From positions 82,596-146,595 of the forward strand of contig JBCCHT010000033.1 of the NCBI GenBank assembly GCA_039028615.1: a stretch of DNA of 64,000 nucleotides, in the 5' to 3' direction. The DNA is from Myxococcota bacterium. GTDB taxonomy: Bacteria; Myxococcota_A; Polyangia; Nannocystales; Nannocystaceae. Positions 27,728 through 35,027 of this stretch are shown piece by piece (positions within the stretch are counted from its first letter, which is position 1; the number at the start of each line of letters is the position of its first letter). Position numbers and translations under genes: made by a program. A model generated the notes under the pieces. It searched no databases. It had not been told where the DNA came from and saw only the letters and a list, made by a program, of their open reading frames with translations.

Positions 27728-30700
27728 TCACTCGGAGGACAGCTCGGCCTCGAGGGCCTTCAAGCGACGAGCGGCCTCCTCGTGGAGGTGGCCGAAGCCG
27801 TGGGCCTCGAGCGCGAGCCGAAGCAACCGCATCGCCTGTCGCTTGCGACGAAGGGTCTCCATGGCGATCGCGGCCGCGAGCAAGCGGTAGTTCTCGGTCT
27901 CGTCGCTCCAGCTCCGTACCCCGCGGGCCCGGGTACGCCGTAGCAAGCGCAACGCGTCGGTCGGGGCGCAGCGCGCCACGAACTCCACGCTGTCGTAGTC
28001 CACGTAGCCGTACAGACGATGGGTCCGCCCCAGCGACTCGACCAGGGGGCGGACGAAGAACGAGCGCACCCGCGGGGTGGCCCCCGCTTCGATGAGCAAG
28101 CGGCTCGCCTGGAGGCACGTGGGCGCAGGGAGCCGCTCGGGATGGCGAAGCAGCGGCAGCAGGGACACGACCAGCTCGGGTCGCTCGGTGAGCTCGGGCA
28201 AGGCCAGCAGCTTCGGTCCGAGTCCCTCGTCGACGTGGGTGCGCCCGAAGGTCTCCATGAGCAGAGCAGACAAGCGGTTGGGTCGTACGGACGCCAGCGC
28301 GGCCCGAAACGCGGACTCGTCTTCCAGCTCGGCGTAGCGCCCGGTGATGTCGACGGGGCCGTCGTCGTACCAGTCTTCGGCCACGAGCTTCGGGATGGAC
28401 CCGTGGGACACCAGCGGAGCCCCCATCGCCTCCGCGAGCCGGCGGACGAAGGCGTCGGAGTGCTCATCGAAATCCGAGTCGGCATCGTGGGCGTAGGGGT
28501 AAAAGGGCAGCAGCGCTCCTTGCTGCGTCAGGCAGACCAGCCGCCGACCTTGGACCCGACCCCGCTCGTCCCGGGCGTAGATCACCCGCTTGTTGATGTC
28601 GGCCGCGTTGGCGAAGACGGAGAAGAAGTTGCACTCGCCCGGGCTGAGGCAGGTGCCGAAGTGGCGCCCCATGTGAAAGACCTCGAGCGGGTCGTCCTCG
28701 AGGCTCAGGCGCAGCGATGCCTTCCGGCCGCCCACCACCACCTCGCCGATCCCGTCGAGCCACGGGCCGGGGTCGATGGGCGATTGCCGCAGCGTCTCGA
28801 TGAACCCCGCGTTGGCGGGGTGATCGCGAAGGTCCCAGGGTTCATCGCTCGCCCGACGCACGAGGAGCATCTCGAACAGCCGCCGGGTCTGCTTGGACTC
28901 CGAAGCCAGCGGCCCGAGCAGCCCGATGAGGCGGTCTTCGAGCAGCCACGGGGTCGCGGAATCGAGGCCGTAGTGCTCGGCCAACGCCGGGCGGAGGCGA
29001 GCCACCGCAGCCTCCTCCAGGCCTGCGACCAGGGCCAAGCCGCTTCGCCGCTTCAGCTTGCCGCGCAGGGTGTCTCGCTTGACCTCCGAAAGCGCCGTGG
29101 CCGGCCCCTCGCGGCTCGCCAATCGCTGCTTCAGGGTCGCGCGACGCTTGCGGAGGGCGGCGGCTCGCTCGGCCGAAGCCTCGGACACCATCCGCTCCAC
29201 GGCTCGTAGCTCGGCTTCGATGGACGCATCGCCCCGATGCACCGAGCGCAGCACCTTGGCCGCGATGGCCCGGGCCCGCGGCGTGAACCGGGTCAGGCGC
29301 TCGAGCTCGCCGCGCAGTTCTTCGGGGTATTCGGCGATCCAGTCGCTCTCCTCGGGCTCGCGCGTGATCGAGCCCGACGGCAGCGGCGCCCCCAAAAACT
29401 CGAGGGCCGCGAGCTTGCGGCCGCAGGACACCAGCGCACCGATGTCCTCCTCGAGCGTCAGCGCCCGCAGCAGCGTACGCTCCTCGTCGGTCACGCGGTC
29501 GAGGACCTGGCGAAGCGCCTTGGCGATCAGCTCCGCGGAGTCCTCCCGGCGATTGAAGAAGTCGAAGACCCGGGCGAACACGTCCACATCGGGCTCGGCC
29601 ACCATCCACGCGGCACGCAGCTCATCGGCGTTGCACCACTGCTCGTGCCGATCGACCGTCGACAGCCCCACGAGCAAGCGGGCCGCGAGCTCGCCGTCGT
29701 GAAAGGCCCCCACCACCGCACACAAGGTCTCGGCGCTCTCGGTCAGGTCGATCTCGGGCGCATGCCGTCGTAGCCAGGCCAAGCCGGTGAAAAAACGCGG
29801 GATGTCGCGGGCCTCGAAGTCCTCCTCGAGCAGGTCCTCCAACAAGCCGTAGAACCCGGAGCCCTTGGTCGCCGCCCGAATCGTGTCCTCGCGCCAGGGT
29901 GCGAAGGCATCGTCGTCCGCGGAGGCCGTGGCCAGGTCGGCCGCCAGCGCGCGCAGCAAGACGGGGGCTCGGCTCGCCTCCCACCCGGGATCGTCGTGGC
30001 GAAGGCGCTCGAAGTGGATCAGCAACCCCGCGCGCGCGGCCACCCCGGGCGACTCCCCGACGTGGCGAAGCGCCTTCGAGGCCGCCGCGTGGTAGCCGGA
30101 GGGCTCGTCTGCGCTGGCGCCCTGGAGTGCAGCGGTCAGGCCCTCGAGGTCGAGCTCGTCGGGTGCTCGCTCGACGATGGCCTGGCGCTCTCTTCGGAGA
30201 CGCTCGATGCGGTCGCTCTTGCCCTTCGACGGTTCCTCGTGCGCCTGGATGTGGTGAGCCTTGTGGGTCACTCGCGTCAGCGCGGGCCACCAGGCGTCCC
30301 ACTCCCCGATCAGCGCCGACAGATCGCAATGCTCGAGCAGCCGAAGAAAACGCTTGGCGCGCGCGGTGTCGACCTGCAGCAGCCAATCGACCCAATCCTC
30401 GATCTGCGGGACCAGGCGCAGCTTCGCCGGCTCCGGCAGCGTTCCTCCTCGCTGAAAGATCGCGGCGCTCTGCTCGACGAAGGGCCGGCCGCCCTTGATC
30501 GCGGTGCGGTAGGTCGCCGGGTCGGCCAGCAAGCGCATCAACGGCTCGACCGCCTTGGGTCGCGCCGCCATCGCGAGATGAGCACAGCGAATGCTCAGCC
30601 GGACTGCCTCGTCGTGACTGCGCTGCTCGTGCACCACCGTCAGCGCGTCGGCTCGCCGTAGGACCCAGGCCAGGTACTTCGGCGCCAACGAGGCCCGGGT

Positions 30701-31141
30701 GGCCAGGACCCACGAGAGCGCATCCACCACGGGCTGCAACACAGGATGCTCGCGCCTCATCGCTCGCGCCCGATTGACGGCCGTGCGCGAGTACAGGTCC
30801 GCCGACCACAGCTCGTCGGGCAGCGCTTCCCCGCGGTGCACCCAGGGCTTGAGCGTGCCCAAGACCCCGCTCACCGCCGCATGCCATGCCGCGACATCCC
30901 CCACCAACTTGGGCATCGCCCGCGGGAACTCGCCGCGCAGCTTGTTCGCCGTGAAGGTGGCCCGACGCAGATGGTTGCGATCGAGCGTCAGCACTTCCGG
31001 GCCACGCTCCCCCTCTTCGGGCACCACCACCCAATCGTCGCCACGGGGATAGCCCTTCAGCCACCACAGCTTGGCCTTCATCAACATGCGGGCCCGAGCG
31101 AGTCCCGAGGCCCGGGTGTTGGCGGGGGAGTGCGGACGCAT
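27728..31141 (-). CDS. Large hypothetical protein
   Basis: About 1137 aa with coding-like codon bias; conserved-looking block LEDDPLEVFHMGRHFGTCLSPGECNFFSVFANAADINKRVIYARD. Start uncertain (31141 or 31087). Confidence 0.75.
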   Translation of the reverse strand: MRPHSPANTRASGLARARMLMKAKLWWLKGYPRGDDWVVVPEEGERGPEVLTLDRNHLRRATFTANKLRGEFPRAMPKLVGDVAAWHAAVSGVLGTLKPWVHRGEALPDELWSADLYSRTAVNRARAMRREHPVLQPVVDALSWVLATRASLAPKYLAWVLRRADALTVVHEQRSHDEAVRLSIRCAHLAMAARPKAVEPLMRLLADPATYRTAIKGGRPFVEQSAAIFQRGGTLPEPAKLRLVPQIEDWVDWLLQVDTARAKRFLRLLEHCDLSALIGEWDAWWPALTRVTHKAHHIQAHEEPSKGKSDRIERLRRERQAIVERAPDELDLEGLTAALQGASADEPSGYHAAASKALRHVGESPGVAARAGLLIHFERLRHDDPGWEASRAPVLLRALAADLATASADDDAFAPWREDTIRAATKGSGFYGLLEDLLEEDFEARDIPRFFTGLAWLRRHAPEIDLTESAETLCAVVGAFHDGELAARLLVGLSTVDRHEQWCNADELRAAWMVAEPDVDVFARVFDFFNRREDSAELIAKALRQVLDRVTDEERTLLRALTLEEDIGALVSCGRKLAALEFLGAPLPSGSITREPEESDWIAEYPEELRGELERLTRFTPRARAIAAKVLRSVHRGDASIEAELRAVERMVSEASAERAAALRKRRATLKQRLASREGPATALSEVKRDTLRGKLKRRSGLALVAGLEEAAVARLRPALAEHYGLDSATPWLLEDRLIGLLGPLASESKQTRRLFEMLLVRRASDEPWDLRDHPANAGFIETLRQSPIDPGPWLDGIGEVVVGGRKASLRLSLEDDPLEVFHMGRHFGTCLSPGECNFFSVFANAADINKRVIYARDERGRVQGRRLVCLTQQGALLPFYPYAHDADSDFDEHSDAFVRRLAEAMGAPLVSHGSIPKLVAEDWYDDGPVDITGRYAELEDESAFRAALASVRPNRLSALLMETFGRTHVDEGLGPKLLALPELTERPELVVSLLPLLRHPERLPAPTCLQASRLLIEAGATPRVRSFFVRPLVESLGRTHRLYGYVDYDSVEFVARCAPTDALRLLRRTRARGVRSWSDETENYRLLAAAIAMETLRRKRQAMRLLRLALEAHGFGHLHEEAARRLKALEAELSSE

Positions 31142-31589
31142 GATGAACGCGACTACGATGAGAGTACGTCGGCTCGATGTGAACACGCGAATCGGGCTCG
31201 TCTCCTCGACCAAACCCGATTCGCGGCGTTCCATCGAGTCATGCTCCAGGTCGTGCCGGTCCGCGCACGGGGCCTTCGGTGCGGGCGGCTCCAGCTCGGC
31301 GGAACGACCGAGGAGCCGGCTCGGTCCTCGACGGCCGGCGTCATGCTCTTCGTTCCCGCTGCGCAAGGCGACCAATGCCGGGTGTGCCACGCTGCCCTTC
31401 CGTGCCAAAACTCGACGGTACGAGAGCAACTGAAATAGCCACGGGTCGGGAACGGGCCGTCGAAAGATTTCGACGAGGGTGACGTACCCACCGGGGCCCA
31501 ATTTGCTCACTCACTCATCGTGAGTTGCACACTCTTCGTGGAGGTGCCGATCGAAGTGTCACTACACTTCGCGCTGCTACGTTGAGTTC

Positions 31590-31976
31590 ATGGTCATGGG
31601 AGCGCAGCCGACGATTCGGCTTCGAGAAACACAGATCGACGCGCTGAGCGAGGTGCCGCGATTGGCCATCCTCGAGCGAGTCTGGCGCCTCGTCGAAGAC
31701 GACTGGTTGGCCGAGAACGAAGGCGCCAGTCGACAGCTCGGCTACGAGCGAGTGATGGCGGGCATCGAGCGCGCCCGCGGCTATGGCATCGAGACCCCGT
31801 ATGGATGGGGTCGATTCGCCCAGCTGATGGTGATGCTGGGCGACGAGTTCGACCTCGATCTGCCCTGGGCCAAAGAGATCCTGGCGATCCCTCGGCTCCA
31901 CGAAGAACACCGCCTCGATCTGGTGGAAGAGCGCGGACTCCAAGACACCGAAGACCTCGAGGGCTCCCAGGAGTAG
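31590..31976 (+). CDS. Small acidic helical protein, putative effector chaperone/adaptor
   Basis: IERARGYGIET..RFAQLMVMLGDEFDLDLPWAKEIL resembles small proteins found beside secretion-effector genes; 4 nt upstream of the toxin gene. Confidence 0.55.
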   Translation: MVMGAQPTIRLRETQIDALSEVPRLAILERVWRLVEDDWLAENEGASRQLGYERVMAGIERARGYGIETPYGWGRFAQLMVMLGDEFDLDLPWAKEILAIPRLHEEHRLDLVEERGLQDTEDLEGSQE

Positions 31977-31980
31977 CGCC

Positions 31981-34284
31981 ATGGATCCCTTTCCCTACCA
32001 GAGCAAGGTCGAGACCAAGCCCAAGCCCGGCAACAAACCCAACGGCAAGGGCGACGAGAATAGGCAACGCAACAAGAGAAAACGCAACAGGAAAAAAAAC
32101 AAGAACCAGAACAACCTGTCCAAGTCGAAATCTTCGATCACGACGACCAAGTGCAAGAACAAGCAGCGGCTCACCGTCCACGTGAGCCCCTCGCCGCACG
32201 CGCTCACGTTCGAGGACGACGACAGCGTCGTCGCCGAGATCAAGGCCATCACGACCCCCAAGAAGGTCAAGAGCATCAAGTGGTCGTTCGTGACCAACCC
32301 CATCGGCGCCAAGTTCATCAAGTCCAAGGGCAACACGGCGAGGATCGAGTCGGAGGAATCCGGCACGGTCAAGGTGCGGGTCGAAGCCAAGACGGAGGAC
32401 CAGACGGCTGTCGCCACGTCCGACGTGCATTTCGTGGACGTCTACCTCCCCGAGGTCGTCGCGAAGGTGCTGCCGCCCCAGGAAAAAGAGGCCACCCGCA
32501 GCATCCAGTTCGAGGCCGAGGGCACGCCGAACGATGGAACCTACGCGTGGGAAGACCTCGCCGAGACCAGCGGTGACGTCGCGATCTCCGGGCAGCAGAA
32601 CAAGAAGAAGCTGAAGCTCCAGGCCAAGACCCCGGGGACGGCCCAGGTCGAGGTCGCCTTCACCCCGAGCGTCGCCGACGAGCTGACGGCCAACATCACG
32701 AGCACCGCCGCGTTCTTCCGCATCGAGCCGGCCGTCCAGGCCGTGAAAGGAGCGGGTGCGAGGAGCTCCGGAAAGCTCGTGACGATGGAGGTCAAGGGCA
32801 CCCCCGACGCGGGCACCCGCAAGTGGAGCCTGAGCAACAACACGATCGGGGCCACCATCGAAGGCGGCACCAACGGCACCAAGCTCAAGATCCGGAGCAA
32901 GAAGAGCGGCGTGGTCAAGGTCAAGTTCCAGTACACGCCCCCCGAAGCGAAACAGCCCCTGACGAGCCACGGGGCGGCCGTGTTCGTTGCCTGCCCCATC
33001 ACCAAGTTCAAAGCCGGGGCGGCGACCGCCTACACCGACATCCCCACGTCGAGGCGCAAACCGATCGAGCTTCTCATCGATCACTCGCCCACGGGGACCA
33101 AGAAGGACCCGGCCGCCTTCAAGACGGGGCGGTTGCTCGTGGAGGCGGACCCCAAGCCCACGAGCATCCAGTCGACGGGCCTCGACGACGAACTCGGCAC
33201 CTACGAGTGGAGCAAGCCCGCCAACAACAAGTTCATCCGCATCTCCGCGACGCAGCCCAACCAGCACGGCCGCGACCAGTCCAAGGTGGCGATCGATGCC
33301 CTCCCCAAGACGGGGACCGTGGGACCCACCAACGACTACGCCGTCGAGAAGGTCCAGATCAAGCGCAAGCTCCACAACGTCCCGGTCACCGACACCATCG
33401 ACGTCCACGTGCACAAAAAGGGCTGCTCCCAGGTGAAGTGGCGTCGAGCACGGCTCAACAACGTGACGAGCGAGGACCGGCTGAAGGTCTGCAAGCACGC
33501 CGCGAACCCGCAGTGGGACAACTGGGCGCTGAACATGACCGAGCCCCCGGGAGGAATTCCCGCGGTGGCCTCCAACGGGCACCAACACGGGGGCCCTTGC
33601 GGCCAGTGTTCGTCGGATGCCCGGACGATCTGGCACTACGTCGAGTCCCACAACGACGTCATCACCCACGCCAAGGACCTCGCCAACACGATCGCGACGT
33701 TCACGAGCCGAGAAGACTCGAACAGCGTGAGCTTCCAGAATGCACACGGGACCACGCTCCACGGCAACACGCTGTTCACCAACGAGATGTGGGCCACGTT
33801 TCGCCCGCAGTACTACGACAACGGGAGCAGCACCTACCGCTACCGCACCCGGGGTCGAATGCTCGGGGTCCTGCGGGGAAAGCCCTTGAACTCGAACGCC
33901 TGGCAGTGGATCTACGGGCTGTCCGGCGAGGGCAACCACGGCGGCACGTGGGCAGCCGAGGTCGATGTCCAGTCACAAGGGGGCGACACCAGCCGCGCCA
34001 TCTCCGGCTACCTGGTCAACGCTCGGTACGGGCAGACCAGCGGGGTGTTCAACACGAACGCGATGACCTCGAGCTGGACTCGATTCGGCCGCTGCGCGGC
34101 AACCCGAGTCCTCCGTGCGGCCATCGCTGCCAACCTGTGCGACATCCAGCTCGCAGAAGTCTGGGTCTACCCCGGCGGCAACGATCTGTACGGCAACTAC
34201 GACCACGGGTACGAGATCGGCTCGTGTGAACAATGCCGTCGGTACCTGGGCCTCATGTTGTGTGAAACCGGGGTCCGCACCTAG
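31981..34284 (+). CDS. Putative polymorphic toxin: basic N-terminus, Ig-like beta repeats, C-terminal Cys-rich (deaminase-like) tip
   Basis: AGGAG RBS; repeated GTP..GT..W beta modules; C-terminus FGRCAATRVL..LAEVW..HGYEIGSCEQCRRYL; followed by SUKH gene. Confidence 0.7.
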   Translation: MDPFPYQSKVETKPKPGNKPNGKGDENRQRNKRKRNRKKNKNQNNLSKSKSSITTTKCKNKQRLTVHVSPSPHALTFEDDDSVVAEIKAITTPKKVKSIKWSFVTNPIGAKFIKSKGNTARIESEESGTVKVRVEAKTEDQTAVATSDVHFVDVYLPEVVAKVLPPQEKEATRSIQFEAEGTPNDGTYAWEDLAETSGDVAISGQQNKKKLKLQAKTPGTAQVEVAFTPSVADELTANITSTAAFFRIEPAVQAVKGAGARSSGKLVTMEVKGTPDAGTRKWSLSNNTIGATIEGGTNGTKLKIRSKKSGVVKVKFQYTPPEAKQPLTSHGAAVFVACPITKFKAGAATAYTDIPTSRRKPIELLIDHSPTGTKKDPAAFKTGRLLVEADPKPTSIQSTGLDDELGTYEWSKPANNKFIRISATQPNQHGRDQSKVAIDALPKTGTVGPTNDYAVEKVQIKRKLHNVPVTDTIDVHVHKKGCSQVKWRRARLNNVTSEDRLKVCKHAANPQWDNWALNMTEPPGGIPAVASNGHQHGGPCGQCSSDARTIWHYVESHNDVITHAKDLANTIATFTSREDSNSVSFQNAHGTTLHGNTLFTNEMWATFRPQYYDNGSSTYRYRTRGRMLGVLRGKPLNSNAWQWIYGLSGEGNHGGTWAAEVDVQSQGGDTSRAISGYLVNARYGQTSGVFNTNAMTSSWTRFGRCAATRVLRAAIAANLCDIQLAEVWVYPGGNDLYGNYDHGYEIGSCEQCRRYLGLMLCETGVRT

Positions 34285-34304: not shown

Positions 34305-35027
34305 ATGAGTAGAATCAGCGACAGCATCGACTTCTGCACGCGGGCCAATCCCGCCTATGCCCAGAGCCTCCGCGGCAGCAGTGCGGCCGACATCGCAAAG
34401 GTGGAAGCCGCCATGGGTCGGCCATTGTCGGCCGAGCACCGCGAGTTCCTCGAGACGATGGGCGAGGGAAGCGGCAGTGACTTCGGCAACTTCACCGTCT
34501 CGCCTTCCGTGCTCCTGCAGCTGCGCTCCGCGACCTACGCTCGCCTGCCGCCCGGCGTCGAGCTGCTGGCCGCGCCCACGGACGACGACCTGATGGACGT
34601 ATTCCTGGTCCACCGCCAAGACGCCGCCCCTCGCGTGCTTCGGCATCGCCCGCTCGAGTATGTGGACAGCGCCGACTTCGATGTCGCCAACACCGAGGCG
34701 ATGGCGGGCGGCCTCGACGAAATGCTGTGCGCGGCCGAGCTGAGCAAGGTCGCCGTCCAGCAACCGCATCTGGTCACGCTCGACGACCACCATCGACGCC
34801 CCGACTTGCTCGACGAGTTTCGCGCCTTGATGCTGTCGTTCGGCGTCACCCCCTACTTCTGGGCCAACGACTGGTCGTTCGCGGGCACCGCCAAAGGTAC
34901 GATCGTGGTGGGCAATCAACCGCCGGGCTGTGGATTGTCGATCGGCGTGGCCGGGCCCGACCGGTGGGCGGTGGCCGCTCTCGCCGGGACCGCCCAGTGG
35001 CAGCTGGAGCTGTCACGCCCGCGTTGA
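34305..35027 (+). CDS. SMI1/KNR4 (SUKH) family immunity protein
   Basis: GSSAADIAKVEAAMGRPLSAEHREFLETMG signature. Confidence 0.8.
   Translation: MSRISDSIDFCTRANPAYAQSLRGSSAADIAKVEAAMGRPLSAEHREFLETMGEGSGSDFGNFTVSPSVLLQLRSATYARLPPGVELLAAPTDDDLMDVFLVHRQDAAPRVLRHRPLEYVDSADFDVANTEAMAGGLDEMLCAAELSKVAVQQPHLVTLDDHHRRPDLLDEFRALMLSFGVTPYFWANDWSFAGTAKGTIVVGNQPPGCGLSIGVAGPDRWAVAALAGTAQWQLELSRPR

Follow-up and report, generated by a model that had tools for sequence, protein, structure and literature searches.

The 64,000-nucleotide stretch analysed here (the window) derives from a Myxococcota bacterium (assembly GCA_039028615.1, contig JBCCHT010000033.1, positions 82,596 to 146,595 of the forward strand), and incorporates a three-gene cassette which probably encodes an interbacterial cytidine-to-uridine (C-to-U) deaminase toxin together with its cognate immunity protein. 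On the basis of sequence comparisons and structural models, a probability of approximately 0.68 is given to this reading. By sequence comparison, the enzymatic tip of the candidate toxin is homologous to the zinc cytidine deaminase domain of the transfer RNA (tRNA) editor TrcP, and its gene is followed directly by one encoding a protein that is modelled with a SUKH fold. The following features can be distinguished, all on the forward (+) strand:

31590..31976 (+): small cassette-heading gene (128 amino acids), candidate adaptor or chaperone, a function inferred only.
31981..34284 (+): candidate toxin open reading frame (ORF; 767 amino acids), with a Lys/Asn-rich N-terminus, a beta-rich immunoglobulin (Ig)-like stalk and a putative TrcP-type deaminase tip.
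32671..33417 (+): conserved pre-toxin stalk region with an internal repeat (alignment A9).
33412..33651 (+): N-terminal Cys/His cluster of the tip (C482, C504, H536, C540, C543 and H552).
33652..34281 (+): putative TrcP-type zinc cytidine-deaminase core (AlphaFold2 (AF2) model, hhalign, joint alignment and structural search).
34093..34236 (+): predicted catalytic set C705, E726, C749 and C752 (equivalents in TrcP: C282, E303, C324 and C328).
34305..35027 (+): candidate immunity protein (240 amino acids), with a predicted N-terminal SUKH (SMI1/KNR4) fold and a C-terminal alpha/beta domain.

Four bases lie between the 128-amino-acid gene and the start of the toxin, and twenty between the toxin stop and the 240-amino-acid gene. 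The codons for C705, E726, C749, C752 and C761 start at positions 34093, 34156, 34225, 34234 and 34261, respectively, and the toxin protein stops six residues past C761. Library scans matched zero Pfam or NCBIfam families to the toxin ORF, the Pfam, NCBIfam and PADLOC scans assigned no family to the tip, and no paralogue of the toxin was found in the 12.3-Mb host genome.

Using the last 199 amino acids of the toxin as phmmer query against 1.84 billion representative proteins, and a cut-off expectation value (E) of ≤ 0.001, twenty-eight proteins (query counted) were matched. Residues C705, A706, A714 and E726 are invariant in 28/28 tips, and C749, C752 and C761 in all 27 rows of alignment A2, to which L002 was added and from which two rows, P0014 and P0021, were dropped, as both appear to continue into the immunity gene. 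An earlier note, made from the letters of the window alone, had drawn attention to a peptide which is indeed the C-terminus of ORF 31981-34284 (+), and the twenty-eight matched proteins and their invariant residues place its motif beyond chance. The span which it gave, from position 33850, proved too short, as the conserved unit extends back to about residue 478 (approximately position 33412), so that helix 1 and the N-terminal Cys/His cluster were missed, while the HG pair which it included in the family motif occurs by eye in 3/28 rows and is replaced by HR in the Vibrio TrcP orthologue. In the fourteen rows of alignment A6, positions C228, A229 and A230 are invariant and C27, C63, C66 and H75, of the N-terminal cluster, are at least 90 % conserved; this cluster is probably a second, structural zinc site. 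Basic residues are retained after the CxxC motif of the tip (CRRxLGRMLC). Scanning of viral contigs for the tip motif gave twenty-two pattern matches and zero relatives, a homologue search among proteins of 2290 to 5000 amino acids only returned none, and another homologue search returned four proteins, with no TrcP among them. Sequence searches of the PDB with the tip yielded chance matches or nothing, and thus no match to a solved structure. Some homologues depart from the usual architecture: in P0026 and P0028 the order is inverted, with the deaminase domain preceding the Ig-like repeats, while in P0031 CAAP and AEIW are separated by a long helical insertion, at a position other than that of the TrcP arm.

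TrcP (VCA0104) is described as a long RluA protein which edits C32 of tRNA-Tyr to pseudouridine, with an N-terminal domain that deaminates C32 and a C-terminal RluA pseudouridine synthase (PMC9553926). The deaminase reportedly binds zinc and requires C282, C324, C328 and E303, and its catalytic Glu occupies a position other than the one seen in blasticidin-S deaminase (Kimura et al. 2022, PMC9553926). Both tRNA binding and editing depend on a long helical domain that interrupts the deaminase, and mutation of this helical arm abolishes the C-to-U activity (PMC9553926). The earlier note had likened the tip to the domain found at the N-terminus of long RluA proteins. This likeness is borne out by hhalign comparison of the tip profile with that of the TrcP N-terminal domain (probability 99.3; E 2.7e-20; 66 columns), by TrcP-like genes in 27/300 genomes and by a reverse match at E 3.6e-5. 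The domain was wrongly taken to be uncharacterised, having already been described as a Zn-dependent tRNA C-to-U deaminase (PMC9553926). The reverse match was obtained with the TrcP profile (A5, L032 excluded), for which the tip is the sole match in the host genome, where no TrcP gene was found. Within the phylum, the tip profile matched 27/300 other genomes at E ≤ 0.01, often in two segments approximately 600 bases apart. Going by the reading of ORFs, fourteen of these matches, one of them frameshifted, continue into a pseudouridine synthase, the other thirteen are stand-alone, and PseudoU_synth_2 is present in 8/8 scanned long TrcP-like proteins. The stand-alone TrcP-type ORFs without the synthase (L011, L014-L019, L021, L023, L024, L027, L029 and L031) mostly have a shortened helical arm, and in L013/L039 a TrcP-type gene is split over two frames within the arm, through either a frameshift or an assembly error.

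In the joint alignment C705, E726, C749 and C752 align with the four catalytic residues of TrcP, which are invariant across eighteen aligned TrcP-type N-terminal domains. The spacing from Cys to Glu is 21 in 28/28 tips and in 17/18 TrcP-type rows, the eighteenth row being a pattern mis-hit for which the printed alignment gives the same Cys-Glu register. The mapping of tip residues onto TrcP is anchored by an RluA-annotated protein of Vibrio sp. HDW18, since all eleven residues of the TrcP paper (R168, R171, K172, R175, K201, K208, C282, E303, C324, C328 and R507) occur in this orthologue at identical numbers. In pairwise comparison the tip and the Vibrio orthologue share 28 % identity over 74 residues (E 2e-4). 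Like TrcP, the tip thus combines a Cys, a Glu at +21 and then a Cys pair with the motifs MxGVL, SG and CAAPxLL and a non-canonically placed Glu.

The tip also differs from TrcP. The distance from MxGVL to the first Cys is 66-83 residues in the 28 tips but 121-213 in seventeen TrcP-type rows, and because it is so much shorter the tip is devoid of the helical tRNA-binding arm; its short insert takes the form of a beta hairpin with loops in the model. The pseudouridine synthase is likewise missing, with PseudoU_synth_2 absent from the toxin and from three scanned same-strand neighbouring genes, and no RluA gene present within the cassette. Furthermore, the tip carries CxxC in place of the CxxxC of TrcP, has a longer N-terminal Cys/His cluster, and is situated on an Ig-like stalk and before a SUKH gene. 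Tips and TrcP proteins separate across a single branch, with Shimodaira-Hasegawa-like approximate likelihood ratio test (SH-aLRT) values of 96 for all columns, those of the helical arm included, and 94 for 162 shared columns; both trees, from which P0031 and short fragments were omitted, are quick and unrooted and silent on whether toxin or editor came first. By these sequence trees the tips form a sister clade to TrcP. A housekeeping TrcP split into parts was considered and rejected, given the missing arm, the lack of an RluA neighbour and the separate clade. A G-x-CxxC...H element before helix 1 is common to the tips and some TrcP-like proteins and is absent in the Vibrio protein. The TrcP-type proteins L012, L017, L020 and L025 share both this element and the final MLC Cys with the tips, while the Vibrio (L040) and Bacteroidota types are without them. 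The combined feature is possibly an ancestral second zinc site.

The AF2 model of residues 478-767 (27 sequences; predicted local distance difference test (pLDDT) 86.3; predicted template modelling score (pTM) 0.88) follows the order alpha-beta-beta-alpha-beta-alpha, with helix 1, strand 1 (MLGVL), strand 2 (YGLSG), a short insert, helix 2, strand 3 and helix 3. Helix 2 begins just after C705, E726 is situated on strand 3, and helix 3 (model residues 273-283) carries C749 and C752, which supply the CxxC found at the start of this helix in canonical deaminases. The canonical [H/C]xE of helix 2 is absent, the tip having C705-A-A and none of the displayed tips an E at +2. The migration of the catalytic Glu postulated in the earlier note is therefore upheld as far as the location of E726 on strand 3 is concerned, but the idea is not new, the displaced Glu of TrcP having been published (PMC9553926). 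No strands occur past helix 3 in the model, and truncation after this helix is reported in several other toxin deaminase clades (PMC3239186). The top row of a wide structural search is blasticidin-S deaminase 3oj6 (Z 5.3; root mean square deviation (rmsd) 4.3; 105 residues aligned), which is likewise reported as a structural neighbour of TrcP (PMC9553926), with 9c63 (Z 4.8) and 3b8f (Z 4.7) next; 3dmo is also among the top nucleoside deaminase rows, and DddA (8e5d) is found at Z 3.6. Judged by title, the top three rows and 21/50 rows overall are deaminases. The tip resembles the blasticidin-S deaminase and CDD/CDA group in its predicted three-Cys zinc site, with 3oj6 as best row, but this group carries C[H]AE in helix 2 and has strands 4-5. 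A deaminase-like fold of the tip is consistent with the model and the search, and rests mainly on the homology to TrcP.

Deaminase tips combined with Ig repeats and SUKH immunity proteins are an established pattern (PMC3239186, Table 1). The cassette shares a predicted deaminase-fold tip, a repeat stalk and an adjacent SUKH-type immunity gene with the deaminase polymorphic toxins BURPS668_1122, YwqJ, SCP1.201/DddA, DYW-like/SsdA, MafB19 and XOO_2897 (PMC3239186, PMC9990079). In contrast, the clades examined in Table 1 carry [HCD]xE in helix 2 (PMC3239186), where the tip has CAA and a Glu on strand 3. The tip is also without a Pfam match to any of those toxin deaminase families, and the DddA, DYW and YwqJ families gave no match in 14/14 tips at E ≤ 1. 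The leads obtained from the Atlas, YwqJ (0.83; 11 % of members) and MsddA-like (0.79; 13 %), fall short of the range in which it is reliable. The system would, from its sequence, function like the deaminase of TrcP without being TrcP, and appears to be built as a polymorphic toxin outside the [HC]xE clades checked.

Deployment of the tip as a toxin, as the earlier note proposed, is favoured by its genomic context. Six genome and five metagenome loci were fetched, and three metagenome loci repeat earlier ones. A homologue of the immunity gene is located directly downstream of the tip in 14/14 loci (eleven distinct, two near-identical; nine built the profile). In a further locus (L059), an immunity homologue (E 5.6e-46) likewise lies behind a divergent tip, which belongs to a second clade and is carried on another repeat stalk. 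The Pfam family SMI1_KNR4 matches the 240-amino-acid protein weakly and below the cut-off (E 0.0054), and is matched at E ≤ 1 by 4/9 members of the immunity family. The AF2 model of this protein (pLDDT 91.1) is more informative: residues 1-157 align with the SUKH proteins YobK (2prv; Z 9.7, rmsd 4.2, 141 residues aligned), 2icg (9.6), 3d5p (9.3), Knr4 (9.1), 2pag (8.3) and Syd (7.4), and the top Foldseek row is 3d5p (E 1.4e-3). The top row of the structural search, spermine synthase (Z 10.4), covers only the C-terminal domain. As modelled, the downstream protein is a SUKH protein in fold, distinguished from other members by the extra C-terminal alpha/beta domain (residues 152-240), which forms part of the predicted interface with the tip.

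The predicted complex of tip and immunity protein scores 0.91, versus 0.07 for the best of three controls; the score mark was reached by 116/157 solved and 2/215 mismatched pairs, counts which hold only roughly here. At least 89 % of contacts are shared between the complex runs, and the pLDDT of the partners is at least 92. Model residues 227-228, 251 and 272, which are at or beside C705, E726 and C749, are included in the interface, and the modelled complex supports binding of the immunity protein to the tip in a manner that covers the active-site face. The tip is mildly basic, with an isoelectric point (pI) of 8.7, and the immunity protein acidic (pI 4.9). A second, weak match to the immunity profile occurs elsewhere in the host genome (contig C2, ORF from 237341 (+); E 2.3e-4), away from any tip.

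The enzymatic tip is carried on a long repeat stalk, which is variable among the homologues (approximately 700-1300 amino acids). The stalk profile has a second, weaker match upstream in the same toxin ORF (E 1.1e-8), and Ig or PKD matches occur on homologues P0007 (E 7e-7) and P0033 (E 2.8e-5). At the start of the toxin (window positions 31981-32160) approximately sixty residues are rich in Lys, Asn and Arg, with similar basic N-termini in P0003, P0007 and P0033, and from its composition this N-terminus is a possible loading signal. The toxin gene is present in 2/40 relatives. Named loci with the family belong to the Acidobacteriota, Verrucomicrobiota and myxobacteria, a patchy distribution over several phyla, and cultured myxobacteria with relatives include Minicystis rosea and Sorangium. 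Among 300 further genomes of the order of genome G481, only G481 was matched at E ≤ 1e-6; since cultured members are known, the genome scans under-count the family. Two divergent toxin-immunity pairs, one per tip clade, are encoded in the single genome G481 (L057 and L058/L059).

Homologues of the 128-amino-acid gene were found upstream of the toxin in 11/14 loci scanned (nine rows built the profile), the three loci without it being short contigs in which the toxin frame runs off the 5' end; none was found in the region of L059. No Pfam family matches the small gene, and the homologue in L008 falls in unnamed Atlas clusters at 0.96. Twenty ORFs of the host genome match the small-gene family, and among the neighbourhoods displayed most run into large unrelated ORFs and some do not. 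Members of this family are 120-130 amino acids in length, sometimes doubled, and often head cassettes with a large variable downstream protein. The small upstream protein may act as an adaptor. A DUF4123-type adaptor was considered for this gene and is unsupported, as there is no Pfam match and the DUF4123 ORF of the genome is outside the twenty matches. Divergent from the cassette is an ORF of 1260 amino acids (27728-31510, - strand), with no Pfam or NCBIfam family over the cut-off.

Under the reading as a deaminase toxin with its immunity protein, the three genes would constitute a competition effector cassette, in which the gene for a stalked toxin is flanked by a small adaptor-like gene and by one for a SUKH immunity protein. 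Zinc would be held by C705, C749 and C752, E726 on strand 3 would replace the usual [HC]xE Glu as proton shuttle, and cytidine would be hydrolysed to uridine, a chemistry transferred by homology from TrcP. The tip would be delivered into a rival cell, probably by a type VI secretion system (T6SS) or an extracellular contractile system, and would there leave U at less selected sites, because it is without both the arm that restricts TrcP to tRNA-Tyr and the pseudouridine synthase. The producer would be shielded by the immunity protein covering the active-site face. Zinc binding, C-to-U chemistry, toxicity and delivery by a T6SS or contractile system are inferred throughout. The host genome encodes TssC, four VgrG proteins over the cut-off, one DUF4123 protein and two Pvc16 proteins, all on other contigs. 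Given activity, RNA loops such as tRNA anticodon loops are, by analogy, the first-choice substrate, the nearest characterised relative being an editor of an anticodon loop, with a likelihood slightly short of even; DNA would then be a doubtful target, and free nucleotides an improbable one. Killing through C-to-U editing of tRNA or other RNA by a free-standing TrcP-type catalytic core, taken in its entirety, is put forward tentatively.

Several observations weigh against this reading. The Pfam and NCBIfam scans revealed no secretion module on the toxin, with PAAR, RHS and VgrG not found, there is no VgrG match on the contig of the window, and nothing in the cassette names a delivery route. The activity and toxicity of the tip are predictions from sequence and models, and since TrcP needs its arm, an arm-less core may require another substrate or be weak. 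As regards the deaminase fold proposed in the earlier note, the order of elements and the 21/50 deaminase rows speak for it, but the structural scores are weak, the best (Z 5.3) falling below the noise level of the tool (approximately 8) and being consistent only, and Foldseek comparison of the tip with the PDB and viral models returned nothing at E ≤ 0.001. The family is rare and known mostly from metagenome assemblies. Furthermore, the stalk was found in 4/73 family genomes, all with the same tip, so that no tip exchange was seen, and the stalk profile matched 0/400 other genomes of the phylum. The converse of tip exchange is seen in L059, where the same tip and immunity pair is on a different stalk.

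The likelihoods attached to the alternatives overlap with that of the deaminase toxin, and two of the alternatives differ from it only in substrate. The first of these retains the toxin and its chemistry but directs it at single- or double-stranded DNA, where it would be mutagenic like SsdA or DddA on a different scaffold. Two characterised deaminase effectors covered in a review act on DNA (PMC9990079), the structural search lists 9c63 and DddA, the tip is devoid of the tRNA-binding arm, and a mildly basic tip is paired with an acidic immunity protein. However, the nearest characterised relative edits tRNA, the 14/14 tips without a DddA, DYW or YwqJ match offer no link to those families, and the deaminase rows differ from one another in Z by no more than noise, so that a DNA target is unlikely, although the least so among the alternatives. 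A toxin whose Zn/Glu pocket serves another reaction, for instance the deamination of adenosine or some other hydrolysis, is less probable still. The tips are a clade of their own apart from TrcP (SH-aLRT 94-96), the tip and the Vibrio orthologue are 28 % identical across 74 residues, and the deaminase-like fold is reported to host several chemistries, including JAB and other catalytic domains (PMC3239186), yet all four catalytic residues of TrcP, their spacing and the MxGVL, SG and CAAPxLL motifs are kept. The second substrate alternative, in which the toxin deaminates free cytidine, cytidine monophosphate or cytidine triphosphate in the manner of the CDA/blasticidin-S deaminase group and thereby depletes or corrupts the nucleotide pool, would account for the nucleoside deaminases at the top of the structural search (3oj6, 3b8f and 3dmo) and for the lack of a large nucleic-acid-binding arm; it is improbable given that TrcP resembles blasticidin-S deaminase equally yet acts on tRNA, and that basic residues follow the CxxC motif. 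That the tip is not a weapon but an intracellular enzyme or regulator with the SUKH partner as regulatory subunit, conceivably a housekeeping replacement in a host genome in which no TrcP gene was found, agrees with the lack of an identified secretion marker and of tip swapping on this stalk, but is equally improbable in view of the patchy spread over several phyla (3/41 relatives), the variable repeat stalks, the dedicated SUKH gene that travels with the tip and the absence of an RluA gene from the cassette.

Both halves of the deaminase toxin reading have precedents, since deaminase toxins with SUKH immunity proteins and the chemistry of TrcP are known, but no description was found of the two joined in a putative arm-less toxin tip accompanied by an immunity gene. 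The TrcP deaminase has been described as a separate deaminase family with a single task, the editing of tRNA-Tyr (PMC9553926), and the words toxin, effector and immunity do not occur in the main text of that paper. TrcP is mentioned without a toxin in the passages covered of a tRNA-editing review (PMC11802342), and is not mentioned in those of a review on engineered deaminases (PMC10661471). The deaminases named in a review on toxins that target nucleic acids are DddA and SsdA (PMC9990079). No TrcP-type toxin was found in the open literature, supplements and the deaminase mining published in subscription journals being outside that search.

If the reading as a deaminase toxin is true, the TrcP core would also occur as a toxin that is devoid of the targeting arm and paired with its own inhibitor, and the link between toxins and editing enzymes would extend to a non-canonical deaminase branch. 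It would provide a direct test of how the TrcP core functions without the helical arm, and may represent an RNA-editing mode of bacterial killing, the deaminase effectors covered in PMC9990079 acting on DNA. The tip would further constitute a candidate editing enzyme of approximately 290 amino acids with a natural off-switch that permits cloning, on a compact non-HxE deaminase scaffold which would escape motif-based mining. Within the host genome, the small-gene family could mark further undescribed effectors.

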